This document shows, in pieces, positions 3,681 through 28,588 of a DNA stretch of 64,000 bases. This DNA is from a virus. The notes beneath the pieces are model-generated. The model was not told the DNA's origin. It searched no databases and saw only the letters and a list, made by a program, of their open reading frames with translations. The number at the start of each line of letters is the position of its first letter. Positions within the stretch are counted from its first letter, which is position 1. The position numbers and the translations under genes are program-made. The stretch is taken from IMG/VR virus record IMGVR_UViG_3300028920_000029, positions 109,363 to 173,362 of that record; one strand, given 5' to 3'.

Positions 3681-4796
3681 TTATTTATCTTTCTTCGGTG
3701 TCTTCCCAAGCCTCTGCTTGAGCAGGTCATCGAAGTAAGTTCCGATAGGCTTACCTTTAGCAGTCAGTGATTCATACAGGAATGGATCACCATCACCAAC
3801 TAAAGTAAGGAACTTAGTAATAGTATCTGCTTCAGTCTCGGCATCGACCAGCTTGTCGATAAACTTCTGCAGTACCTCTTTCCTTTTCTTCTCAACCTTG
3901 TATTCCTTTTCAGTAAACACTATACCCGCTACTTCTTCAAGAGCAAAGGACCTCTTGAGGGCTTTAGCTTTACCATACTTGGACCACGCGGCTGCAACAC
4001 AGTTCAGCAGTCCTCTGGCGTCTATAATGGAATCCTGTACGAACTCCATTAACTTAACGACAGTGCTGGCAGACAGGATACCTTTGGCAAGGTCAGCGAA
4101 TTCTTTCATGTCGACATCCTTGGTCAGGTCCAGCTTAAGCTGCTTGCATGTGTCATCTAACTGTGACCACGATCTTGGACATGTCCACGGTTCAAACGGG
4201 CTGTCCTTGGACGGTCCAGTAACAAGAGCTTTCATTCCTATAGCCTTAACAAAGGCACCTATCTCTTTGATAGGCTTCTGGAAGTCAAGCCACTTGTCAA
4301 CTCTTGGCGGCTGCATCATGTAGACATAACCTCTTCCGCCAGTAAGCGCTGATGTAATTATCTTGGCGAAAGTACCGTCTTCACCACCCATGTTACCTGA
4401 GATAACAAACTGTGTCTTCTCAGGCAGCTTGATGTTATCCAGGTTTTTACCCAGGACTATATCAAGCACAGCACCCTGAACGTCCTCTGTTGCCAGAGTA
4501 AACTCGTCAAAGTGAACTACGACATTACCTTTGGAGTCTATGACTTTCTTCCAAAAGCTTGGCGCTTTCCACTCAACATAGTCTCCCTCAGGCGAAGGAA
4601 TACCTTTGATGTCATAGGCTTCAAGCCTGCCCAGTGACAACGTAATGTACTCCCTGCCCGCTGCGATAGCTCCGTCGTGGATTGAAACGGTTTTTCCTAC
4701 TCCAGGATCACCTAAGATGATCAGGGTTTTCGGATTAGCCATCTCGCTAAACCTCTTGATAAGACTTACACACTCATTCGCAGCAATTGCACGCAT
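3681..4796 (-). CDS. MoxR-like AAA+ ATPase
   Basis: Walker A GDPGVGKT, Walker B VHFDE, sensor CPRSW; near VWA gene. Confidence 0.85.
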   Translation of the reverse strand: MRAIAANECVSLIKRFSEMANPKTLIILGDPGVGKTVSIHDGAIAAGREYITLSLGRLEAYDIKGIPSPEGDYVEWKAPSFWKKVIDSKGNVVVHFDEFTLATEDVQGAVLDIVLGKNLDNIKLPEKTQFVISGNMGGEDGTFAKIITSALTGGRGYVYMMQPPRVDKWLDFQKPIKEIGAFVKAIGMKALVTGPSKDSPFEPWTCPRSWSQLDDTCKQLKLDLTKDVDMKEFADLAKGILSASTVVKLMEFVQDSIIDARGLLNCVAAAWSKYGKAKALKRSFALEEVAGIVFTEKEYKVEKKRKEVLQKFIDKLVDAETEADTITKFLTLVGDGDPFLYESLTAKGKPIGTYFDDLLKQRLGKTPKKDK

Positions 4797-5322: not shown

Positions 5323-5582
5323 AATAGCACCTCCATTTTTTGCAGAAAAAGTTTGACAACTTCTTTGGTAGGCTTATCAAAGATATAGGTGTCTCTGTTT
5401 TCATCCATTAACTTATCCGCATACTCTCCCAAACGCCTACCGTTACACGTAACCTCTTCCCACACCAAAATGTCGTGGTTAGCATAACGTAACACCAGTT
5501 CCAGCCACGTATGGAATAACATATGTTTCTGTTTTTCCACTAATTTCCGTCGTAGCCTTTGTTTATACTGGCGGTTATTCAT
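5319..5582 (-). CDS. hypothetical protein
   Basis: coupled ORF. Confidence 0.6.
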   Translation of the reverse strand: MNNRQYKQRLRRKLVEKQKHMLFHTWLELVLRYANHDILVWEEVTCNGRRLGEYADKLMDENRDTYIFDKPTKEVVKLFLQKMEVLF

Positions 5583-6000
5583 CTCCAGGCTCCTCTAACT
5601 TAACATAGATTTCGCCTGCTCTGCCGTGTAAGTAGACGCCTTTCTTTCCAGCCTGTGTAAGCTCTGGAATATCCAGCTCACCTGACTTAGCAACTTTAGG
5701 AATTGAAGCGACTTCACTTTCTATTTCTTTTAGGCGCTTAGCTTTAATTCCAGCTAACGCCTGGTCGAAATCAGAGGAAGGTATAACTCTTACCTTAGAC
5801 TCTGGTACATCTGCTTCTACTTCTTCGGGTGAGGCTTTAGCTAATACAGAGATAGCTGAGTCAATCTGATTAGCCTCCTCAACCAGGACTTTCTGTGCTT
5901 CCTTTTTACTTACCTGAGCAGCGCCAATGATATCGGCTTTGGTCTTACTCAGGGCAGTAATAACAGAAGAGTAACTTGGAACGTCCTTTTTCTTACCCAT
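5575..6000 (-). CDS. hypothetical protein
   Basis: ORF with AAGGAGGTG RBS. Confidence 0.7.
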   Translation of the reverse strand: MGKKKDVPSYSSVITALSKTKADIIGAAQVSKKEAQKVLVEEANQIDSAISVLAKASPEEVEADVPESKVRVIPSSDFDQALAGIKAKRLKEIESEVASIPKVAKSGELDIPELTQAGKKGVYLHGRAGEIYVKLEEPGDE

Positions 6001-7035: not shown

Positions 7036-7377
7036 TTATTCGTTTGGCGTGACGTAAGGAACTACTCCGCCACCTGTGAAATAATATTCATACCAGAGAT
7101 CCCCATCGGTAAAGGATAGGTTGCCTACTGATACGTGTGGAGCAATGGCGGCGAACAGTCTGTCCTGCCTTGCGTCCCTGCCGCCCAGGAACTCAATGGT
7201 ACCTCTGGTAATGGTGAAACCAAAGAGCCTCAAAGCGTGGTCTAAGTTCCTGGCGCACAGTATGCGCTGCCCCTTATCCCATGCCTTGCCGTACTTGACG
7301 TTACCTTTCAACGCCTCAAACGCAGCTTTCTCGTTCTCAATCTTAAGCTTGGATTTAAAACACCCGTGTCTGCTCAT
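7036..7377 (-). CDS. hypothetical protein
   Basis: 113-aa ORF with RBS. Confidence 0.65.
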   Translation of the reverse strand: MSRHGCFKSKLKIENEKAAFEALKGNVKYGKAWDKGQRILCARNLDHALRLFGFTITRGTIEFLGGRDARQDRLFAAIAPHVSVGNLSFTDGDLWYEYYFTGGGVVPYVTPNE

Positions 7378-16373: not shown

Positions 16374-16551
16374 TGAACACACCTTCCGACTCTATTGGTT
16401 CTATGATAGATAGCTGACTTATTTTGTTCTCCAGATTTTCTACCCTATCCTCAAGTCGCTTAAACTTATCAGTTGTAACTACCATAAACGCTATCATCAC
16501 TGCCATAAACAGCGTTATCACAACGGACTCAACCTTATCCATATTACTCAC
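16366..16551 (-). CDS. small membrane protein
   Basis: single TM plus coiled coil. Confidence 0.55.
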   Translation of the reverse strand: MSNMDKVESVVITLFMAVMIAFMVVTTDKFKRLEDRVENLENKISQLSIIEPIESEGVFSE

Positions 16552-17074
16552 TCTCCTTTAATATTTTAATACCATATTTTAATATCTTTAACCTCATTTT
16601 ATTTTTTGCATAAGCAGCATCATAAGCAGCATCATAAGCAGCATAAGCAGCATCATAAGCAGCATCATAAGCAGCATCATAAGCAGCAGCATAAGCAGCA
16701 TCATAAGCAACAGTATAAGCAGAATAAGCAGTAGTATAAGCAGTAGTATAAGCAGCATAAGCAGCCTTTTTATTTTTTTGTGTAGGATTTTTTATACATT
16801 TTTTTGCTGCCTCTATTGCTTTTCTCGGTCTATCGTCACTCGGATATTTCTTTTCAAAAATATCTATTACTTGTTCTGCTGCATATACAGCATAAGATAC
16901 ATATTGCTTATATTCCATTACCCTAACAATTAACCAATTAGCCCAGTCTAAATGCTTCTCTTTTATTAACTTCTTTACAACCTTTAATCCGTCTATCTCT
17001 TCCTGTTTGGTAAACCACTCAATACCCTCACTACAAGCATCCTTTTCTTCTAACCATTTAACTGTTATATCCAT
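16544..17074 (-). CDS. phage protein with AAY(D/A) low-complexity repeat
   Basis: ACSEG...DDRPRKAIEAA motif, (AAYD)n tract from 9/12-bp DNA repeats ~16608-16764. Confidence 0.75.
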   Translation of the reverse strand: MDITVKWLEEKDACSEGIEWFTKQEEIDGLKVVKKLIKEKHLDWANWLIVRVMEYKQYVSYAVYAAEQVIDIFEKKYPSDDRPRKAIEAAKKCIKNPTQKNKKAAYAAYTTAYTTAYSAYTVAYDAAYAAAYDAAYDAAYDAAYAAYDAAYDAAYAKNKMRLKILKYGIKILKESE

Positions 17075-17881: not shown

Positions 17882-18163
17882 TCATCTATCGTGGGCGCTT
17901 ATCTGAATAACTATAGAGTTGTTAGGCTCTCGTATTAGTCTATCTGCTATAGCATCCTGCTCTATTGATTTAAAATCCCAACGATCTTTTACACGTAACT
18001 TTGCCGAGGGAAACCTTTTTCTTATAGCAGAAACTACGGCGGTTATGCTTACTCCTTTTTTAGGTGTAATATCGCACAGATACCATCCAAAACTTCCTGC
18101 GCCATAAAAGGTGCACTTAAACAACTTATCGTAGTTTTCCAAAGTTGATTCCTTATTTCTCAC
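17882..18163 (-). CDS. hypothetical protein, paralog family B
   Basis: ITPKKGVSITAV. Confidence 0.65.
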   Translation of the reverse strand: MRNKESTLENYDKLFKCTFYGAGSFGWYLCDITPKKGVSITAVVSAIRKRFPSAKLRVKDRWDFKSIEQDAIADRLIREPNNSIVIQISAHDR

Positions 18164-18395
18164 AGAATGTTCCTACGGCGTAACTAACGCCCAATAATGC
18201 TACCACAATCATACCGCCATAAAAACTTATTTCGTTTGTTGTGTACCATTTATGGAGTGCCCAGAGTATTACTGCTAGTGCGTCCAGTATTACTACGGTT
18301 ATTCCTATGTGCAGTAATCCTATGCCTATTCTTCGTAGAATAACTTTCCATATAGGTTCTATTACGGGATCTGGATCGGACCATAATTCTGACAT
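18153..18395 (-). CDS. membrane protein
   Basis: two TM segments, AAGGAGG RBS. Confidence 0.6.
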   Translation of the reverse strand: MSELWSDPDPVIEPIWKVILRRIGIGLLHIGITVVILDALAVILWALHKWYTTNEISFYGGMIVVALLGVSYAVGTFCEK

Positions 18396-18434
18396 ACCGT
18401 GCCTCCTTCAATGTAGTATATCGCTTACAGTATA

Positions 18435-18462
18435 AGTATACTGATAGAATTGGATTTGTCAA
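18435..18462 (-). promoter_or_regulatory. sigma70/SigA-type promoter
   Basis: TTGACA-N16-TATACT. Confidence 0.7.
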
Positions 18463-18483
18463 GAAAAAATTTAAGAAATTTTA

Positions 18484-18520
18484 TGGTGCCAGCAGATGGA
18501 CTCGAACCACCGTAGCTATA
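18484..18520 (-). pseudogene. 3' half of an interrupted tRNA gene
   Basis: T-arm GGTGG-TTCGAGT-CCATC, TGCTGGC-A-CCA; pairs with 5' half at 19141-19178. Confidence 0.8.
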
Positions 18521-18604
18521 TGGTGGGCAGGGATGGATTCGAACCATCGTACCCGAGGGAACGGATTTACAGTCCGCCGCCTTTAACCGCTCAGCCACCT
18601 ACCC
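18521..18604 (-). tRNA. tRNA-Tyr(GTA)
   Basis: cloverleaf, long variable arm, CCA. Confidence 0.95.
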
Positions 18605-19081
18605 ACGTTTTTTACTACCATATGTATCTGTTTGAGTATGACAATTTGGACAAAGAATTCTTAGGTTCTCTAATCTATTGTCAGTATGATCACCGTTTAT
18701 ATGGTCTAAGTGCATACTTAGTTTTTTATTATTCCATACGTTACCTTGACTACATTTCTCACATATTTCCTGCTTTAATCCAAACTCATATAATTTTTGT
18801 TTTAATGCATGACTTGTCCACTTAGCACCATCTAAACAAAGAACATTTTTTGTGAAGGACGTTATGGAGTGTTTCCTGCTATTGGCCCCAGTAGATGACC
18901 ACCCACGATTTTTAAAATGGGACGTATCTAGCCCATAATCCTTAATACGTTTAGCCACTAAATTGTGACTTCCTCCACCTACTCGTAAACCTAACTCTCT
19001 AATAATGTCCGCGACATTATAATGTCTTTTGACTAACTCGTTTAACAGTTCCTTACTATATTTTGTAGTATTTGCTTTCAT
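18599..19081 (-). CDS. HNH homing endonuclease
   Basis: HLDHINGDHTDNRLENLRILCPNCH; AGGAGG RBS before MKANTT. Confidence 0.9.
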   Translation of the reverse strand: MKANTTKYSKELLNELVKRHYNVADIIRELGLRVGGGSHNLVAKRIKDYGLDTSHFKNRGWSSTGANSRKHSITSFTKNVLCLDGAKWTSHALKQKLYEFGLKQEICEKCSQGNVWNNKKLSMHLDHINGDHTDNRLENLRILCPNCHTQTDTYGSKKRG

Positions 19082-19108
19082 AGTAAACCTCCTATCTAGA
19101 ATACTACT

Positions 19109-19137
19109 AGTATAGCATATTATAGTGACAAAAGCAA
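19109..19137 (-). promoter_or_regulatory. promoter of HNH gene
   Basis: TTGCTT-N17-TATACT with extended TG. Confidence 0.6.
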
Positions 19138-19140
19138 ATA

Positions 19141-19178
19141 CCAACAGCCAGATGTCATTGCCGCTAGACTATACTGGC
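19141..19178 (-). pseudogene. 5' half of an interrupted tRNA gene (Tyr or Asn)
   Basis: GCCAGTA acceptor strand, D-arm, TCTGG-CTGTT then breaks off. Confidence 0.75.
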
Positions 19179-19186
19179 ACTATATT

Positions 19187-19273
19187 TGGCGGAAAGCTCA
19201 GGACTTGAACCTGAACGGGATTGCTCCCCAGAGTTTAGCAAACTCTTGCCTTACCAATTAGGTCTAGCTTTCC
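19187..19273 (-). tRNA. tRNA-Ser(GCT)
   Basis: cloverleaf, long variable arm, CCA. Confidence 0.93.
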
Positions 19274-19281
19274 TTTATTTC

Positions 19282-19377
19282 TGGAGGAGAGGGAGCGATT
19301 CGAACGCTCGAGCGTCATCTCTGACGCCACCTATTTTCAAGATAGGTAGAATAAACCTGACTCTCTTACACCTCTCC
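19282..19377 (-). tRNA. tRNA-Ser(TGA)
   Basis: CCTAT-CT-TGA-AA-ATAGG, long variable arm. Confidence 0.88.
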
Positions 19378-19383
19378 TCTATA

Positions 19384-19462
19384 TGGTTGCGGAGGTCAGA
19401 TTTGCACTGACGTTGTTTCAGGGTATGAGCCTGCTGCTGGAACTACTCCAGCCCACTCCGCT
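19384..19462 (-). tRNA. tRNA-Met(CAT), initiator-like
   Basis: CT-CAT-AC loop; 1:72 mismatch. Confidence 0.8.
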
Positions 19463-19469
19463 TATTTTT

Positions 19470-19546
19470 TGGTCCCCAAGCCTGGAGTTGAACCAAGAAA
19501 AAGCAGGTTTTGAATCTGCCGCCTATGCCAATTCGGCTACTTGGGG
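19470..19546 (-). tRNA. tRNA-Leu(CAA), short variable loop
   Basis: GCAGA-TT-CAA-AA-CCTGC, CCA. Confidence 0.85.
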
Positions 19547-19547
19547 T

Positions 19548-19633
19548 TGGTGCGCCAGGTAGGACTTGCACCTACACGACCGAAGCCGACGGATCTTAAG
19601 TCCGTTGCGTCTGCTAAATTCCGCCACTAGCGC
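19548..19633 (-). tRNA. tRNA-Leu(TAA)
   Basis: cloverleaf, long variable arm. Confidence 0.93.
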
Positions 19634-19634
19634 T

Positions 19635-19710
19635 TGGTGGGTCCACAGGGAATTGCACCCCAATCTTCCGATTAAAAGTCGGAAGCTCTAACTAATTGAG
19701 CTATAGACCC
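19635..19710 (-). tRNA. tRNA-Lys(TTT)
   Basis: TCCGA-CT-TTT-AA-TCGGA. Confidence 0.93.
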
Positions 19711-19711
19711 T

Positions 19712-19788
19712 TGGTGCCCCTAGAAGGATTTGAACCTTCAGAATTCTGATTCTAAGTCAGATAGCTATACCGATTCGCCTATAGGGGC
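19712..19788 (-). tRNA. tRNA-Leu(TAG), short variable loop
   Basis: TCTGA-CT-TAG-AA-TCAGA. Confidence 0.9.
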
Positions 19789-19790
19789 AT

Positions 19791-19865
19791 TGGTGCGTCG
19801 AGGTGGGAACGATCCACCGACCTTCTCCTTAAGAAGGAGCAGCTCTACCACTGAGCTACCGACGC
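19791..19865 (-). tRNA. tRNA-Lys(CTT)
   Basis: CTCC-TT-CTT-AA-GGAG. Confidence 0.92.
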
Positions 19866-19869
19866 ATTA

Positions 19870-19942
19870 AAGGTTGGGCTGCGTACACGCTGTATCGTTT
19901 CTCCAAGGATTACGCCTCCTAGGCGACCAACTACCCAACCTT
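19870..19942 (-). ncRNA. putative small structured RNA
   Basis: 9-bp closing stem AAGGTTGGG/CCCAACCTT with internal hairpins, between RNase P RNA and tRNA-Lys. Confidence 0.45.
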
Positions 19943-19951
19943 ATTTTTAAA

Positions 19952-20240
19952 AGTAATTCATAACCCAGGTTCTGTTTTTGCAGTCATTAATCTTAGCGTC
20001 CTTACCCGCGTGCTCCGTGAGGTCTCATCATCACACGCCTATTTGGACTTGCTCACAGTAAAGGTTGGTCGTCTCACTTGTTTTTAGTTTATATAATTTT
20101 CAGAATCTGAGTTTTTATAAAACTAAAAACAACTCGTCTCTGTCCCCTATTTGTCGCTCACGCGCCCAGCTTTTAAGACTGGTACTGCGCCTCAATTGAG
20201 CCTGGAGTTTCCTCGGTTTCCCGCGACTGCTTGAATCACT
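19952..20240 (-). ncRNA. rnpB: RNase P RNA (compact)
   Basis: P1 AGTGATTCA/TGAATTACT; CR-I GAGGAAACTCCAGGC; CR-V ACAGAACCTGGGTTA (P4 partner); ACAGAGA and GAGCAAG elements. Confidence 0.88.
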
Positions 20241-20241
20241 C

Positions 20242-20454
20242 TTATTTTTTCAACAATGCAATTAATTCTCTTCTAGCTTTTGCTTCCTCTGGGGTATCGT
20301 GAACACTATGATCTACCCATTTAACATCCACTTCTGAATACTCAACAAATCTACCATCAACTAAAATCCATCCTCGTTTTGTGTTTTTGTTTCCAAATAA
20401 TACTGGTCCAGCAATTTGTACTTTTTCTCCTGTAGCTTTAATTATTGCTTCCAT
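20242..20454 (-). CDS. hypothetical protein
   Basis: GAAGGAGGT RBS before MEAIIK. Confidence 0.6.
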   Translation of the reverse strand: MEAIIKATGEKVQIAGPVLFGNKNTKRGWILVDGRFVEYSEVDVKWVDHSVHDTPEEAKARRELIALLKK

Positions 20455-20479
20455 TTGTTTACCTCCTTCCCGTAAATTT

Positions 20480-20554
20480 TGGCGCCCCACGACAGAGTTG
20501 AACTGTCCTATTCGGCGCGACAAGCCGACGTAATAGCCGATATACGAGTGGGGC
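20480..20554 (-). tRNA. tRNA-Asp(GTC)
   Basis: TCGGC-TT-GTC-GC-GCCGA. Confidence 0.9.
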
Positions 20555-20566
20555 ACTATTTCTTTT

Positions 20567-20595
20567 AGTATACTTAAAATACCAACAAGCGTCAA
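20567..20595 (-). promoter_or_regulatory. sigma70/SigA-type promoter
   Basis: TTGACG-N17-TATACT. Confidence 0.65.
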
Positions 20596-20837
20596 TTAGC
20601 TTTTTTATTTTTTACTATACTTCTTAATTTATTATGCAGCCCAGCAAAAATTGGCAAATAAACATTCTTAAACGTTTCTTTCCATTTTTCACAGTATGGA
20701 CAACCGTCTATGTGATCGTCCTCATTTATGTGTTTCTTACACATATGTACGCCGTCTTCAGCAATATAATAGTGTTCCGTCTCAGTTACCAAAATCGGTT
20801 CCGTTACACCTTTTCGATACAATAATTTTTTACCCAT
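20592..20837 (-). CDS. hypothetical protein
   Basis: AAAGGAGGTG RBS. Confidence 0.65.
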   Translation of the reverse strand: MGKKLLYRKGVTEPILVTETEHYYIAEDGVHMCKKHINEDDHIDGCPYCEKWKETFKNVYLPIFAGLHNKLRSIVKNKKAN

Positions 20838-20857
20838 AGTTCACCTCCTTTCTTTTA

Positions 20858-20886
20858 AGTATACTTAAGGTTTTGACATATGTCAA
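20858..20886 (-). promoter_or_regulatory. sigma70/SigA-type promoter
   Basis: TTGACA-N17-TATACT. Confidence 0.7.
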
Positions 20887-20899
20887 GCCTTTTATTTCC

Positions 20900-20974
20900 T
20901 GGCACCCCCTGTAGGCTTCGCACCCACGCACCGCGGTCCGTAGCCGCGAGCTCTGTCTCCTGAGCTAAGGGGGT
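20900..20974 (-). tRNA. tRNA-Arg(ACG)
   Basis: CGCGG-CT-ACG-GA-CCGCG. Confidence 0.9.
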
Positions 20975-20975
20975 A

Positions 20976-21050
20976 TGGTGTCCCTTGATGGAATCAAACC
21001 ACCGTCTCAGCTTTAGGAAAGCCGTGTTCTATTCACTGTACTAAAGGGAC
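20976..21050 (-). tRNA. tRNA-Arg(CCT)
   Basis: CGGCT-TT-CCT-AA-AGCTG. Confidence 0.9.
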
Positions 21051-21051
21051 A

Positions 21052-21127
21052 TGGTGCCCTGAGAAGGACTCGCACCCTCGACCTACGGAGTAGAAATCCG
21101 CTGCTCTGTCTCCTGAGCTACCAGGGC
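21052..21127 (-). tRNA. tRNA-Arg(TCT)
   Basis: GCGGA-TT-TCT-AC-TCCGT. Confidence 0.92.
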
Positions 21128-21132
21128 CTTAC

Positions 21133-21208
21133 TGGTTGCGGGACCACGGATCGAACGTGGACTATTCTGAGTCAGGGTCAGATGTTTTGCCTATTAAACT
21201 ATCCCGCA
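21133..21208 (-). tRNA. tRNA-Gln(CTG)
   Basis: TCTGA-CC-CTG-AC-TCAGA. Confidence 0.88.
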
Positions 21209-21209
21209 A

Positions 21210-21755
21210 CTATATCTTCCATTTTTTACGTCTTTTAATAACAGCTTGACCACTACAATTTTTAATAGTAGCAATCTCTTCGTTAGTTTTTCCGTCTTTT
21301 ACTAAGGCCTCAAGTTCTCTTTTGTTCCATTCTATTTTTCCAGCTAATTTTCCTGCACACATTAAAGAACAAGTTTTTCTATATGCCATCTTTTCCTTGC
21401 CACATACTGGGCAAAAATCCTTTAATTCGTTTTTAGTAGAATCTGTTATAAGTTTATCATTAAATCTCAATGCTGTTTTTGGAATTATACTTATTAATCC
21501 ATGCACTTCGCTATGACAATTGCTACAAACCATAACACATTTTTCTACTTCTTTTTTAATTTTTATCCACTTCGTAGGATCTCTAAGCATAAAAGCAATT
21601 CCGCTTTCTTTATCTTTACTATTTAAATGATGGAACTCTAAAGCGTCTATATGTTTATTATACCCACAAATGCAACATTTTCCACCAAAACCTTCTACTA
21701 GTTTCTTTTTTGTATTCCGTCTCCAACGTTTTACAGCCTCAGATTTAGCACTCAT
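21210..21755 (-). CDS. HNH endonuclease with C-terminal Zn-finger/HTH
   Basis: GGKCCICGY..ALEFHH..CVMVCSNCH. Confidence 0.88.
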   Translation of the reverse strand: MSAKSEAVKRWRRNTKKKLVEGFGGKCCICGYNKHIDALEFHHLNSKDKESGIAFMLRDPTKWIKIKKEVEKCVMVCSNCHSEVHGLISIIPKTALRFNDKLITDSTKNELKDFCPVCGKEKMAYRKTCSLMCAGKLAGKIEWNKRELEALVKDGKTNEEIATIKNCSGQAVIKRRKKWKI

Positions 21756-21785
21756 AGTAAAACCTCCTTATAGTTTATTACTACA

Positions 21786-21815
21786 AGTATAACATAACAC
21801 GGTGTGTTAATGCAA
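21786..21815 (-). promoter_or_regulatory. promoter of HNH gene
   Basis: TTGCAT-N18-TATACT with extended TG. Confidence 0.5.
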
Positions 21816-21830
21816 CTTGTTACGTTATAT

Positions 21831-21905
21831 TGGCTCCAGCGGGTGGAGTCGAACCACCATTTTACTCCTTAACAGGGAGGCGCATTACCATTATGCTACA
21901 CTGGA
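21831..21905 (-). tRNA. tRNA-Asn(GTT)
   Basis: CTCC-CT-GTT-AA-GGAG, G73. Confidence 0.92.
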
Positions 21906-21907
21906 AC

Positions 21908-21984
21908 TGGTGCCTCCGAAAGGATTTGAACCTTTGGCCAAAGCGTTATCAACACTCTGCTCTACCAAGCTGAGCTACAGAGGC
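21908..21984 (-). tRNA. tRNA-Ile(GAT)
   Basis: GAGTG-TT-GAT-AA-CGCTT. Confidence 0.92.
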
Positions 21985-21985
21985 A

Positions 21986-22061
21986 TGGTGGAGACGATCG
22001 GGAACGATCCGACAACCCCCTGATTGCAAATCAGGCGCTCTCCCAATTGAGCTACGTCCCC
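21986..22061 (-). tRNA. tRNA-Ala(TGC)
   Basis: CCTGA-TT-TGC-AA-TCAGG, G3:U70. Confidence 0.95.
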
Positions 22062-22062
22062 A

Positions 22063-22138
22063 TGGTGGATACTTTTGGAGTCGAACCAAATTCTCTTGTT
22101 CTTCAGACAAGCGTGATGACCGCATTCACCAAATATCC
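22063..22138 (-). tRNA. tRNA-Phe(GAA)
   Basis: CTTGT-CT-GAA-GA-ACAAG. Confidence 0.9.
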
Positions 22139-22139
22139 A

Positions 22140-22216
22140 TGGTGCTCTCCGAAGGACTCGAACCTCCGACCCTCTCATTATGAGTGAGACGCTCTAACCG
22201 ACTGAGCTAGAAGAGC
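22140..22216 (-). tRNA. tRNA-Met/Ile2(CAT)
   Basis: TCTCA-CT-CAT-AA-TGAGA. Confidence 0.9.
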
Positions 22217-22223
22217 AATATTC

Positions 22224-22297
22224 TGGAGAGGCGAGTAAGATTTTAACTTACCTTATCTGGGTTGCAACCAGACGCCTAGACACTTGGCTATCGCCTC
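22224..22297 (-). tRNA. tRNA-Cys(GCA)
   Basis: TCTGG-TT-GCA-AC-CCAGA, U73. Confidence 0.88.
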
Positions 22298-22308
22298 TCT
22301 TAATTCTC

Positions 22309-22383
22309 TGGTAGTCGGAGTGGGTACTGCCCCCACCTGGTCCTCTTTGTAAGAGAGGTGCATGACTAATCTGCCATCCGACT
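22309..22383 (-). tRNA. tRNA-Val(TAC)
   Basis: CCTCT-CT-TAC-AA-AGAGG. Confidence 0.88.
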
Positions 22384-22404
22384 TCTATTAAGATCTATAA
22401 ATCC

Positions 22405-22478
22405 TGGTTGCCTCAGAACGGGTCGAACGTTCGCTACCTGTGTCAAAAACAGGCGTGCTACCACTACACTACAAGGCA
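22405..22478 (-). tRNA. tRNA-Gln(TTG)
   Basis: CCTGT-TT-TTG-AC-ACAGG. Confidence 0.9.
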
Positions 22479-22482
22479 TTTT

Positions 22483-22556
22483 TGGAGAGGGCTAAGGGAC
22501 TCGAACCCTTTTTTTCAGTTTGGAAGACTGGAGTTAAACCTATTAACTAAGCCCTC
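22483..22556 (-). tRNA. tRNA-Gly(TCC)
   Basis: CAGT-CT-TCC-AA-ACTG, U73. Confidence 0.88.
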
Positions 22557-22558
22557 TC

Positions 22559-22629
22559 TGGTACCACGAACTGGAATTGCACCAATCCTCTGGGCGTATG
22601 AAACCCTGAGTCCATCTAATGGTCGTGGC
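22559..22629 (-). tRNA. tRNA-Met(CAT), atypical D-arm
   Basis: GGGT-TT-CAT-AC-GCCC; acceptor stem and CCA intact; reduced D region. Confidence 0.7.
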
Positions 22630-22637
22630 CTATATTT

Positions 22638-22713
22638 TGGAGCCCACGGAGGGACTTGCACCCCCAACCGTCGGTTTACAGGACCGCTGCTCTTCTATTA
22701 AAGCTACGCGGGC
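22638..22713 (-). tRNA. tRNA-Thr(TGT)
   Basis: CGGT-CC-TGT-AA-ACCG. Confidence 0.88.
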
Positions 22714-22723
22714 TCTTAATTTT

Positions 22724-22797
22724 TGGTGTGAGGCGGGGATTTGAACCCCTCTGGGAGAGCCACAATCTCCCGTGCTAACCATTACACTAGCCCCACC
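22724..22797 (-). tRNA. tRNA-His(GTG)
   Basis: GGAGA-TT-GTG-GC-TCTCC, encoded G-1. Confidence 0.9.
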
Positions 22798-22800
22798 ACT

Positions 22801-22875
22801 TGGCACCGCCGTAAGGAATCGAACCCTATCTTTCTGTTCTGGAGACAGATGTGCTAACCATTACACTACTGCGGC
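22801..22875 (-). tRNA. tRNA-Trp(CCA)
   Basis: TCTGT-CT-CCA-GA-ACAGA. Confidence 0.92.
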
Positions 22876-22878
22876 ATT

Positions 22879-22955
22879 TGGTGACGCATGTGGGACTCGA
22901 ACCCACAATCCTCAGACTGAAAATCTGATGGCTTAAACCATTTGCCTAATGCGCC
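22879..22955 (-). tRNA. tRNA-Glu(TTC)
   Basis: TCAGA-TT-TTC-AG-TCTGA. Confidence 0.92.
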
Positions 22956-22987
22956 ACATCTCTTTAACTGTTAAGAACTATAAGTGC

Positions 22988-23064
22988 TGGTCTAGGTGGA
23001 AGGATTTGAACCTTCGACATCTTGCTTCCAAGGCAAGCAGGCTACCAGACTGCCCCACACCTAG
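22988..23064 (-). tRNA. tRNA-Pro(TGG)
   Basis: CTTGC-CT-TGG-AA-GCAAG. Confidence 0.93.
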
Positions 23065-23069
23065 TCGTT

Positions 23070-23108
23070 AAAATAAAAAAGGCCCGACGGATTTCTCCGC
23101 CAGGCCTT
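23070..23108 (-). terminator. intrinsic terminator (attenuator) upstream of tRNA array
   Basis: AAGGCCTGGCGGA-GAAA-TCCGTCGGGCCTT followed by TTTTATTTT. Confidence 0.88.
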
Positions 23109-23130
23109 TGTCTAGTACTACTCTAATTCG

Positions 23131-23283
23131 TCACATAGAGCTGCCTGGCAGACCTGGCGGTTTTTGTGTATCTATACATACCGCCGCCAACAGAATATAG
23201 GCATGCATAAATAACTGGCTATCGCCAAGCCATTCTGCTCTTCGCCTATTCTCTGTGGTCTGTGACAAACTCTTAAGCAACAT
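23131..23283 (-). CDS. putative attenuator leader peptide (50 aa, all 20 amino acids)
   Basis: AGGAG RBS; MLLKSLSQTTENRRRAEWLGDSQLFMHAYILLAAVCIDTQKPPGLPGSSM*; contains segments complementary to terminator 5' arm. Confidence 0.75.
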   Translation of the reverse strand: MLLKSLSQTTENRRRAEWLGDSQLFMHAYILLAAVCIDTQKPPGLPGSSM

Positions 23284-23355
23284 GATTTATTTCTCCTAAT
23301 TTTGGTGCTATGTTGGACTAGCACCTTATGCTAACACAATCTTTATGACAATACA

Positions 23356-23384
23356 AGTATACTCATGGTTTCGGTAAATGTCAA
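23356..23384 (-). promoter_or_regulatory. promoter of tRNA operon leader
   Basis: TTGACA-N17-TATACT. Confidence 0.78.
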
Positions 23385-23397
23385 GTAAATTTGTAAA

Positions 23398-23745
23398 CTA
23401 AGTAATAAAAAATGTACAGTATAAAACGCCCACAAGAAGTATAATTCCCATAGCAGTAACAAACAAAATTTCTGAAATAATACTGCGCTTCTTAAACCTG
23501 GTACACCTCCCATTCTTATTAAGCTGTGCTTGGCCTGCTATCCTAACTTTTTTACATTGTGTACCATATGTTGGATCCCACACATCTTGCGGGTCAAAAC
23601 AATCGTCATGAGTACACACAATAGTATAGCCACTAATAACTATGCTAGAATTGGGTTCATTGGGATCAATAAACCTCTCTTCTACACTGGTGTACCCATT
23701 ATTTAGATATGTACAATCTTCACACTTTACCGTGCCTTTTTTCAT
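23398..23745 (-). CDS. Cys-containing protein with C-terminal TM
   Basis: CEDC motif, hydrophobic C-terminus, AAGGAGGTG RBS. Confidence 0.6.
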   Translation of the reverse strand: MKKGTVKCEDCTYLNNGYTSVEERFIDPNEPNSSIVISGYTIVCTHDDCFDPQDVWDPTYGTQCKKVRIAGQAQLNKNGRCTRFKKRSIISEILFVTAMGIILLVGVLYCTFFIT

Positions 23746-24208
23746 CTTTCCACCTCCTTTGAAATAGTTTCTTAATTTTTCTTATTCCGTATTTGATACC
23801 CCACCTAATACGTCTCAATAGCCCTATAACGCTAATCATTATATGACCATACCAAGGTACCAAACTTATAAAGTCGGCATCTGGTTGTCCAACAAGTACG
23901 TTTTTACGTTTAGGTTTATGAACTCTATACTTACTAACAAGCTCTAATAAATCTTCTTCCTCGATAACGCCGCTATTGTCACCTATAATATATACAACGC
24001 TATGTGTACTCGATGATTTACCAACGCCAGAAAGTGAGGTTGACGTAACTCTAAAAAAGTTGTGTACATTCAAATACGTGCAACTTTTATACTGGCGGGA
24101 GCTGCGAACAAACCAACGCCTAAATAACCCAACCAAAGTTACGGTGCAGTAACCTTTAGAGGCTTTCCAATCTAATACTGGATCCCACGCCAGCTTCTCG
24201 CTACTCAT
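23720..24208 (-). CDS. hypothetical protein, divergent paralog family A
   Basis: DPVLDWK..TVTLVGLFRRW, YRVHKP, PWY. Confidence 0.65.
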   Translation of the reverse strand: MSSEKLAWDPVLDWKASKGYCTVTLVGLFRRWFVRSSRQYKSCTYLNVHNFFRVTSTSLSGVGKSSSTHSVVYIIGDNSGVIEEEDLLELVSKYRVHKPKRKNVLVGQPDADFISLVPWYGHIMISVIGLLRRIRWGIKYGIRKIKKLFQRRWKDEKRHGKV

Positions 24209-24630
24209 TTAGTATCTCCTTTAGTAGGGTAAGTTCTTTTTTCGGTATCTGGTTCTACAGATATATCGCCAACTCCTATATAAGCTTCCAAGTTCCTCTT
24301 GGGTTTAACTTTTGAATTAATGGTATCTATGTACGCATGCACTTTATCAGACATAGTTTTTGTAGTTATATCTTCTGGAAGCTCATCCTCAACAATCTTT
24401 TTGTCGTTTAGAATAACGGTGAATCCTCCAAGCATTCCAGGGGCCTTTGGGTTCGATGTAGGCATTACCGCAACAGGTTTATAAAACTTAAAATCCTTTT
24501 GTAACTGAATACCTAATGATCGAGCCAGTTCCATAGTAGTCGCTGCACGAGATAATACGTCCGATAAATCCTTCTTAGATAACTTCATGAACTCTTTCCA
24601 CTGTCTTGGTTCTATTCTATTCATCTTCAT
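24205..24630 (-). CDS. hypothetical protein
   Basis: 141-aa ORF. Confidence 0.65.
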   Translation of the reverse strand: MKMNRIEPRQWKEFMKLSKKDLSDVLSRAATTMELARSLGIQLQKDFKFYKPVAVMPTSNPKAPGMLGGFTVILNDKKIVEDELPEDITTKTMSDKVHAYIDTINSKVKPKRNLEAYIGVGDISVEPDTEKRTYPTKGDTK

Positions 24631-25054
24631 AGCTATCCTCCATACTAAGTCTTTTAAGTGTTGAATATACGTGTCTGTTATCTAACTGATACTCGTGCGG
24701 GAAATAACACTCATATTTTTCGGCTATGAACCTTGCTACCGCCGCAGACCTGCTAACTCCTCCTTCACAGTGTACCACTATATGCTCAATGTCCTTTGGA
24801 AGCATATCTATAAACTCTAGTATCTTACGTGCGTCATCCTCCGTAAAGTTTATATACTCATTCTCTTCTGCGCCGTCAAAGACCCAGGCACCTCTGACGC
24901 CATCCACGTCATGAAAAGCAAGCCTTAAAACATACTTCCATAACTTGTGTAGTGTTGGGGCGTCTCTTTTGGGGTCCCTAATGGAAATTAAAGCTACATG
25001 TTCATTAGGTACCACCTGTTCTATAACTGCCCTGGATACGAAGTCGACTTTCAT
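24617..25054 (-). CDS. protein-tyrosine/dual-specificity phosphatase family protein
   Basis: CX5R motif VHCEGGVSRS. Confidence 0.85.
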   Translation of the reverse strand: MKVDFVSRAVIEQVVPNEHVALISIRDPKRDAPTLHKLWKYVLRLAFHDVDGVRGAWVFDGAEENEYINFTEDDARKILEFIDMLPKDIEHIVVHCEGGVSRSAAVARFIAEKYECYFPHEYQLDNRHVYSTLKRLSMEDSYEDE

Positions 25055-25892: not shown

Positions 25893-26381
25893 CTACTCTT
25901 TAAGTAGCTCATCCCCAGTCTTATTAAGACTTGGGTCATCTATATTGTACCAAGTCTTACCTCCGTCCTTAGAGAAGAAACTTGGGTCTCTTTTGTTTTG
26001 CCACAGGGTTTTGGCGTTTTTACCACACATATCTGTGATGTCCATCCACTCATCTGGATTAGAAGAAATAGGTGTTAAAGTTTTATACTTAAGCAGTTTG
26101 TTTAGTATATCTATGGTAAGACTTGCCGAGAAACCGCTATGACCTTGCGTAGAAAAAACCTTAACCATGTCTAATATACTTTTACCAAGTGCTCCGTTAT
26201 AATCTGAGCCTTTGTCAAACATGCCAGCTCTCCGAAGTTCTTTTTCCGCATGACTAACTAAGTTGCTTTTTCTAAACCGTTCCTTAAAGTTAAAAAAATT
26301 TACTATCCTTGTCCACCAAGATATATACCAAAACAGTTTAGGTGTTGCTACGGGCTCAAGATCTTTCTCATCACTCGACAT
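25893..26381 (-). CDS. conserved phage hypothetical protein
   Basis: FSTQGHSGFSA..LTPI..WQNKRD motifs typical of a phage family. Confidence 0.65.
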   Translation of the reverse strand: MSSDEKDLEPVATPKLFWYISWWTRIVNFFNFKERFRKSNLVSHAEKELRRAGMFDKGSDYNGALGKSILDMVKVFSTQGHSGFSASLTIDILNKLLKYKTLTPISSNPDEWMDITDMCGKNAKTLWQNKRDPSFFSKDGGKTWYNIDDPSLNKTGDELLKE

Positions 26382-28560: not shown

Positions 28561-28588
28561 AGTATACTGATAAATTGCTATTTGTCAA
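28561..28588 (-). promoter_or_regulatory. sigma70/SigA-type promoter
   Basis: TTGACA-N16-TATACT. Confidence 0.65.

Follow-up and report, generated by a model that had tools for sequence, protein, structure and literature searches.

A candidate translation-coupled attenuator in front of the tRNA array of a marine-sediment phage

How does a phage that carries tRNA genes for all 20 amino acids decide when to make them? The usual explanations for tRNA arrays in phages are codon usage and the replacement of host tRNAs that shut-off or anticodon nucleases have removed; the regulation of the arrays is, to our knowledge, almost unstudied. The question is raised by a virus from a marine-sediment metagenome, IMG/VR record IMGVR_UViG_3300028920_000029, a complete record of 173 kb of which we studied the last 64 kb (64,000 nt, positions 109,363 to 173,362; hereafter the window, whose numbering is used throughout). 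On its minus strand, directly 5' of the tRNA array, lies a leader unit of 315 nt in which a strong promoter, a Shine-Dalgarno (SD) sequence, a 50-codon open reading frame (ORF) and an intrinsic terminator follow one another (Table 1). All the coordinates given for these four elements in the original prediction, which had been made by reading the sequence, were confirmed. From modelling of ribosome positions, set beside a second phage with the same architecture, we judge the odds to lie somewhat on the favourable side of even that the unit is a translation-coupled attenuator of the leader-peptide type, gating read-through from the early promoter into the array.

The promoter belongs to a family, cTTGACA-N16/17-(G)TATACTt, with seven perfect and 11 near-perfect sites in the genome, including those at window positions 28588, 23384, 20886, 18462 and 62696. 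These 18 sites with at least 11/12 matches exceed chance, as shuffled genomes have only 4-8. Most are followed within about 10-35 nt by a strong SD of the GGAGG type and a small gene. The promoter family and its SDs suggest that the host has promoters of the sigma-70 type and makes strong use of SDs, and is thus not a member of the Bacteroidota. At the leader, the SD lies much farther from the promoter than at the other sites, behind a structured 5' untranslated region (UTR) of 66 nt. The terminator at the other end of the unit is the sole strong one on the minus strand within the 6.5 kb from 18000 to 24500. Its T-tract ends 6 nt 5' of tRNA-Pro (23064), the first gene of the array, which is too small a space for a promoter, and the first block of tRNAs after it, 15 genes for 14 amino acids, has no promoter either. 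No internal terminator was found in the array (18521..23064, minus strand).

The ORF is probably translated, judging from its start signals. The SD duplex has a predicted energy of -7.3 kcal/mol, close to the real-gene mean of -7.5, and is equalled by just 5.9% of chance ORFs of 40-70 codons; small ATG ORFs with an SD of such quality mostly look like real small genes. The log-likelihood ratio for codon usage is -0.035, lower than in 96% of real-gene windows, and GC content is flat over the codon positions. Codon usage unlike that of genes, combined with the strong RNA structure described below, fits a leader rather than a protein gene. The encoded peptide has a hydrophobic core, and a search of 5.8 billion proteins returned no homologue, the sole match being the peptide itself. 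Within the 173-kb genome the leader has no paralogue. The leader region contains another open frame of 50 codons.

The leader RNA is much more structured than coding sequence. The z-score is -7.6 for the whole transcript, -4.2 for the ORF alone and -5.5 for the ORF with its 3' flank, compared with 0.09 +/- 0.92 (minimum -1.9) for coding windows of the same size. The minimum free energy (MFE) structure is a four-helix junction followed by the terminator. Helix A, which joins codons 2-8 to the stretch just 3' of the stop, closes the junction, and helices C and D contain the two antiterminator segments, AT1 and AT2, respectively. Both segments, which fall within codons 41-47, are alternative partners of the 5' arm of the terminator, GGCCUGGCGG. 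The duplex of AT1 with the arm has an energy of -19.8 kcal/mol for its 10-bp core and -23.6 kcal/mol when extended, and dinucleotide shuffling of the upstream RNA yielded a duplex of this grade in 0.05% of cases (P=0.0005). In folds of the nascent RNA, AT2 takes the arm when helix C holds AT1. The 1:2, 2:3 and 3:4 pairing chain of attenuators is present in this leader, beyond chance. The segments named in the original prediction, CCGCCAGGTC, CTGCCAGGC and TTGGCGGCGGT, lie where it had placed them and pair as it had described. The ORF stop is 21 nt from the terminator stem.

Table 1. Features of the leader unit, the tRNA array and its flanks in the window, and the comparable units of Cellulophaga phage phi17:2 (numbered as in KT962247.1). 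dG, free energy in kcal/mol.
Feature	Position	Strand	Details
Sigma-70-type early promoter, TTGACA-N17-TATACT	23356..23384	-	consensus match 12/12
Two small hairpins in the 66-nt 5' UTR	23304..23339	-	MFE structure; 5' UTR z -2.3
Shine-Dalgarno AGGAG	23293..23297	-	9 nt 5' of ATG at 23283
50-codon leader ORF, within the four-helix RNA fold	23131..23283	-	37 distinct sense codons, 20 amino acids
Segment 1, UUGGCGGCGGU	23180..23190	-	partner of the 5' part of AT1 (helix C); duplex -12.4 kcal/mol
Antiterminator segment AT1, ACCGCCAGGUCUG	23149..23161	-	13 nt, codons 41-45; pairs with terminator 5' arm
Antiterminator segment AT2, CUGCCAGGC	23143..23151	-	codons 45-47, 10-18 nt 5' of stop; nine pairs with arm, -15.0
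Intrinsic terminator; hairpin followed by UUUUUUAUUUU	23070..23109 (hairpin 23109-23078)	-	14-bp GC-rich stem, 4-nt loop; dG about -24.5 to -25.2, z -6.8
Downstream cargo: 29 tRNA genes, two HNH genes, two small genes, RNase P RNA	18521..23064	-	tRNAs cover all 20 amino acids
Thr(TGT) tRNA	22638-22713	-	missed by ARAGORN default
Atypical 68-nt Met(CAT)-like tRNA	22559-22626	-	missed by ARAGORN default
Val(TAC)-like tRNA, odd D-arm region	about 22309-22382	-	missed by ARAGORN default
Two HNH homing-endonuclease genes inside the array	21210-21755, 18599-19144	-	
Compact RNase P RNA gene, bacterial class A, 297 nt	19946-20242	-	between tRNA-Asp and tRNA-Lys; Rfam RF00010, full model span
Tad3 (Thoeris inhibitor) homologue	25893-26381	-	Pfam PF25185, E 6.6e-38
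DSP-type phosphatase	24617-25054	-	HCxxGxxRS motif
Imm5-like protein	16544-17074	-	
phi17:2 units (promoter, short ORF, terminator, tRNA block)	4572-4742, 5514-5716, 7090-7285		
phi17:2 leader MKIQRLHLQELEQPIISGGTGV			tRNAs Pro, Glu, Gln, His, Leu, Leu, Arg; own-block P=0.0045
phi17:2 leader, 22/26 residues matching			tRNAs Ala, Lys, Ile, Gly, Met, Asp, Thr, Val, Arg, Met; own-block P=0.0004
phi17:2 leader MKTNYCTYNNSNWSFSY...			tRNAs Tyr, Ser, Asn, Trp, Phe; own-block P=0.0049

What would a ribosome on the ORF do to these pairings? In a model that allows no pairs across the ribosome, an antiterminator is paired with the arm whenever the ribosome stands within codons 1-41 (P 0.6-1.0); with the ribosome anywhere from codon 42 to the stop none is, as both segments are hidden. 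When nascent RNA without the 3' arm of the terminator is folded, AT1 or AT2 captures the 5' arm if the RNA is untranslated or the ribosome is at codons 1-40. Termination has been reported as about 90% at a distance of 28 bp and under 10% at 5 bp (PMC4824070); by these distances, the 21-nt spacing from stop to stem should let a terminating ribosome leave the hairpin free. Refolding barriers calculated with findpath were 14-27 kcal/mol in all states and thus uninformative. We also considered that helix A might kinetically lock the untranslated RNA in the terminating form, and obtained no support for this.

The proposed switch would work as follows. A polymerase starting near 23349 (~23349) would have to cross the strong terminator adjoining tRNA-Pro. 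With smooth translation, a ribosome would stand between codon 42 and the stop during synthesis of the terminator, AT1 and AT2 would be hidden, the hairpin would form and transcription would end. A ribosome held up within codons 1-41 by a shortage of charged tRNA for any one of 19 amino acids would leave AT1 or AT2 free to capture the arm, and the polymerase would then read into the tRNAs and, with no further terminator, probably through the whole array including its RNase P RNA. The sensing range of such a device would be broad because of its geometry: every codon 5' of the antiterminators counts, and this requires no designed codon set. As far as the translated states are concerned, the model reproduces the attenuation logic that had been proposed for the unit; the untranslated state is where it departs from trp.

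Several observations weigh against an attenuator. At equilibrium, the full-length RNA forms the terminator at every ribosome position scanned, so the scan does not discriminate between positions and any switch must be purely kinetic, as in trp; the alternative structures expected from the original prediction appear in nascent RNA, where AT1 or AT2 captures the arm, but not in the complete transcript. The nascent RNA is predicted to be antiterminated when untranslated, unlike that of trp, and termination in this state would depend on folding kinetics. The upstream segment that was to sequester the first antiterminator does pair with it, but the duplex (-12.4 kcal/mol) is weak beside the core of AT1 with the arm (-19.8 kcal/mol). 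A promoter, SD and small ORF are also the ordinary small-gene module of this phage. Promoters inside the array, at 20886 and 20595, can supply the distal tRNAs. No relatives at a useful divergence were found in the phage, IMG/VR, metagenome or protein collections searched, and no RNA runs containing the locus are listed. To these must be added the codon content of the ORF, which had been the most striking part of the original prediction.

The count of 37 distinct codons and all 20 amino acids is correct. Compared with all stop-free 50-codon windows of the genome, this codon and amino-acid diversity is rare (0.4% and 0.9%, respectively), but those windows are mostly codon-biased real genes. In stop-free shuffles of the ORF's own base composition it is ordinary, with P=0.16 for at least 37 codons, P=0.08 for all 20 amino acids and P=0.027 for the two jointly, and the diversity is not counted as beyond chance. 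As the codon usage of the ORF is not gene-like, high diversity is what an unbiased frame gives: an open frame of the same composition would be expected to have the all-20/37-codon content about 3-8% of the time, and the feature was picked post hoc. The codons do not mirror the isoacceptors of the array, as had been suggested, since 24 of 49 are exactly cognate where 23.3 are expected (P=0.48), and the leader lacks 10 of the 27 cognate codons, not just GGA for Gly. Residues for the 14 amino acids of the first tRNA block are not enriched either (28 observed, 29.4 expected, P=0.72). Coverage is complete, 20/20 for the array and 14/14 for the first block (P about 0.08), and this 20/20 coverage is the sole statistic favouring a leader designed for every amino acid and matched to the isoacceptors, a claim that is not established.

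A more far-reaching reading is possible but less likely than not. Codons 1-40 hold 19 types of amino acid (P=0.11), and the leader could be a purpose-built gauge of overall decoding capacity, in which the loss of nearly any host tRNA would free an antiterminator. Its triggers would be anticodon-nuclease defences, starvation or phage-induced host shut-off, and all 29 phage tRNAs together with the RNase P RNA would be turned on as a counter-measure. Proline is present only at codons 42, 43 and 46, where a stalled ribosome would favour termination, which limits the amino acids that could be sensed to 19 at most. The expectation that a stall at almost any earlier codon frees an antiterminator accordingly holds in the model, by geometry, for codons 1-41, with proline excluded. 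The antiterminator segments (23137-23160, minus strand) encode Pro-Pro-Gly-Leu-Pro-Gly, and PPG is the classic EF-P-dependent pause motif. One might speculate that Pro-Pro-Gly is a built-in pause that keeps the ribosome on AT1 and AT2; the motif may just as well be a side effect of the pairing sequence CCGCCAGG.

Does the same arrangement occur elsewhere? We surveyed 13 unrelated annotated public phages, with similarity of their tRNAs and diversity of genera as the sole grounds for choosing them. Only 5 of roughly 125 block starts had a strong terminator no more than 13 nt from a tRNA, and this rarity implies that terminator gating is not a trivial by-product of tRNA arrays. Three of the tRNA blocks gated in this way are in Cellulophaga phage phi17:2 (KT962247.1), each after a Bacteroidota-type promoter and a short ORF. 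Each of the three leaders covers all the amino-acid types of its own block, with the enrichments given in Table 1, and is depleted for those of the other two (P 0.67 to above 0.99). The stop-to-stem distances of 25, 24 and 18 nt compare with 21 nt in the present leader, and the terminators lie 6-9 nt 5' of the tRNA, compared with 6 nt. The leaders are structured (z -2.6 to -5.7), and segments near the ORF end that pair with the terminator arm are significant in two of the three units. The first two units share a 40-nt promoter repeat.

Promoter, short ORF, strong terminator, structured leader and an arm-pairing segment near the end of the ORF are thus shared between the two phages. The match between leaders and blocks in phi17:2 shows, as far as sequence can, that this architecture is of a real, functional-looking kind, and it is this match that moved our assessment of an attenuator in the present phage from unlikely to slightly better than even. 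The systems also differ. The phi17:2 leaders have 22-32 codons and no SD (the host is of Bacteroidota type), and each is enriched for a small tRNA block; the present phage has a single 50-codon leader before an array for 20 amino acids, where coverage alone can be scored, not enrichment (P=0.08). The remaining phages contributed less. In Stenotrophomonas phage Ps15, an ORF before a Trp/Cys block gave P=0.12 and has a weak SD, and in Bacillus phage BCP12 there is no ORF 5' of the terminator. A 50-aa 'ORF' with all 20 amino acids in Ruegeria phage RpAliso was rejected, as the annotation shows it to be the C-terminal part of a methyltransferase. The T5-like Vibrio phage Thalassa (MG649967.1, 7767-16274) has at least 10 small annotated coding sequences (CDSs) whose ends lie 0-9 nt 5' of a tRNA, without an intervening terminator; these resemble the present unit in being small ORFs with SDs, co-transcribed with tRNAs in an early region, and differ in adjoining the tRNA without a terminator and in having a composition without diversity excess.

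Relatives of the leader and its surroundings were sought in several collections. Searching with the leader and its upstream genes by blastn gave no match in 50,697 phage records, and two neighbouring proteins compared with IMG/VR, and one compared with metagenome contigs, gave no confirmed match. An exact word from tRNA-Pro matched a single unrelated tRNA-Trp locus in IMG/VR and nothing in the metagenomes. The upstream 115-aa protein had one match at 36%, on a contig of 583 nt. A gapped antiterminator/terminator pattern returned 42 IMG/VR matches, all on contigs of 57-73% GC with no tRNA nearby, and these were dismissed as chance. Of two DNA runs, both represented by contigs only, one may be the source sample; the other, also from marine sediment, did contain fragments of a near-identical strain, covering 23181-23331 and 22889-23128. 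The 5' part of the leader has four changes in 151 nt, compared with one in 240 nt over the terminator, tRNA-Pro and tRNA-Glu. Two changes fall in the SD spacer, in a region that is still purine-rich, and the single change in the ORF is a synonymous TTG to TTA that also converts a G-U pair of helix A to A-U, a divergence too shallow to decide between coding and structure.

The strongest competitor to an attenuator is a small early gene of the ordinary kind, equipped with a promoter, SD and terminator of its own. In that case the upstream early operon would also end at this terminator, the first tRNA block would be expressed by constitutive leaky read-through, and the complementarity to the arm would be incidental. 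The same promoter type with a strong SD does drive small protein genes at 20886, 18462 and elsewhere, the SD of the leader is gene-like and its peptide has a hydrophobic core, and T5-like phages mix small CDSs among their tRNAs. Such a gene would, however, have codon usage below that of 96% of real-gene windows, GC flat over its codon positions, no homologue among 5.8 billion proteins, RNA structure far beyond the coding range and a complementarity to the arm found at P=0.0005 by shuffling. It would also have a 66-nt structured 5' UTR unlike that of the other modules, and a terminator of -24 kcal/mol adjoining 15 promoterless tRNAs would waste most of the transcription. We regard this explanation as improbable, at about a one-in-several chance.

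A little less probable again is a structured non-coding leader or small RNA, in which the four-helix junction acts as a factor-dependent attenuator: a protein, small molecule or tRNA would stabilise the junction and sequester AT1 and AT2, with the ORF being incidental. The junction alone has a z-score of -5.5, and its MFE fold holds AT1 in helix C and AT2 in helix D, with helix A (the ORF start and the stretch after the stop) closing it. The second open 50-codon frame is as expected of an RNA with balanced composition, and the codon diversity is typical of non-coding sequence. Yet no Rfam family (riboswitch, T-box or other cis-regulatory) matched 23066-23400 at E<=1 with permissive filters, a gene-quality SD with a correctly spaced ATG is found in just about 6% of chance ORFs, and the distance from ORF to terminator is as in the Cellulophaga leaders. 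The lone ORF substitution in the second strain is synonymous, though the same change replaces G-U by A-U in helix A. Finally, a chance co-occurrence of a promoter, an open frame and the terminator of an upstream operon, with no regulatory coupling, is very unlikely: the features were chosen post hoc from 64 kb and each diversity statistic is unremarkable under a proper null, but a perfect promoter, a good SD, arm complementarity at P=0.0005 and a z-score of -7.6 are jointly improbable in 315 nt directly before the array.

If the leader is an attenuator, how does it compare with known ones? It resembles the enterobacterial attenuators (trpL, hisL, pheL, leuL and the multivalent thrL and ilvL) in the succession of promoter, SD-led ORF, alternative pairings (1:2, 2:3, 3:4), terminator and regulated genes. 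As in those, the antiterminator is weaker than the terminator, which makes control kinetic, and the multivalent leaders sense several amino acids, as this one would. It differs in that its cargo is tRNA genes instead of amino-acid biosynthesis, and that its leader has 50 codons instead of 14-32, with no run of regulatory codons. Its ORF also spans the equivalents of segment 1 and segment 2, and the untranslated state is predicted to be antiterminated, not terminated. The pyrBI attenuator of E. coli has a 44-codon leader and senses the coupling of ribosome and polymerase; its ORF and terminator overlap, and termination is prevented by a ribosome that follows the polymerase closely. The present leader shares with it a long ORF and an output that would be set by the closeness of ribosome to polymerase, not by one amino acid. 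In contrast to pyrBI, the stop here is 21 nt upstream of the stem, and a ribosome that keeps close should, by the model, favour termination. In T-box riboswitches, which regulate genes for amino acids and for aminoacyl-tRNA synthetases, one particular uncharged tRNA is bound by the RNA itself and translation plays no part. They are similar in that a leader with a terminator and an antiterminator reports, or here would report, on tRNA charging, although the present leader has no T-box match.

The array itself is larger than automatic annotation suggests. ARAGORN with default settings finds 26 tRNAs, Rfam and relaxed ARAGORN add Thr(TGT) and the atypical Met-like gene, and the gap at 22297-22405 shows a Val(TAC)-like tRNA. 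These three make 29, the number originally counted, and render the array complete for all 20 amino acids. The RNase P RNA scores 112 bits against RF00010 (gathering score 100, E 1.7e-34) and, as the array has no terminator, may share a transcript with the tRNAs; no description of a phage-encoded RNase P RNA turned up in a quick literature search. Two HNH genes interrupt the array, and HNH or Seg-like genes also break up tRNA arrays in several of the surveyed phages. Right after tRNA-Tyr, at 18480-18511 on the minus strand, there is a partial tRNA 3' half (T-arm and acceptor with a CCA end), and 3' of it the perfect early promoter at 18462 leads into a small membrane-protein gene. The genes flanking the array, including the Tad3 homologue, the DSP-type phosphatase and the Imm5-like protein, look like an early counter-defence region.

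The literature searched contains no description of attenuators in front of phage tRNA genes, although most subscription journals lay outside the search, so this is no proof of absence; leader-peptide attenuation applied to a tRNA array is apparently undescribed and would be new relative to published knowledge. The unit should be testable in laboratory bacteria with reporter fusions, given its sigma-70 consensus promoter and standard SD, and phi17:2 offers a cultured second system for testing by infection. If the attenuator is real, it would extend the logic of trp and his from amino-acid supply to tRNA supply: the phage would gauge decoding performance directly and make tRNAs, and perhaps RNase P RNA, just when they are needed. 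Should the reading as a gauge of decoding capacity also be true, leader-peptide attenuators that supply phages with tRNAs on demand would form an undescribed family, with this leader as its pan-amino-acid member.

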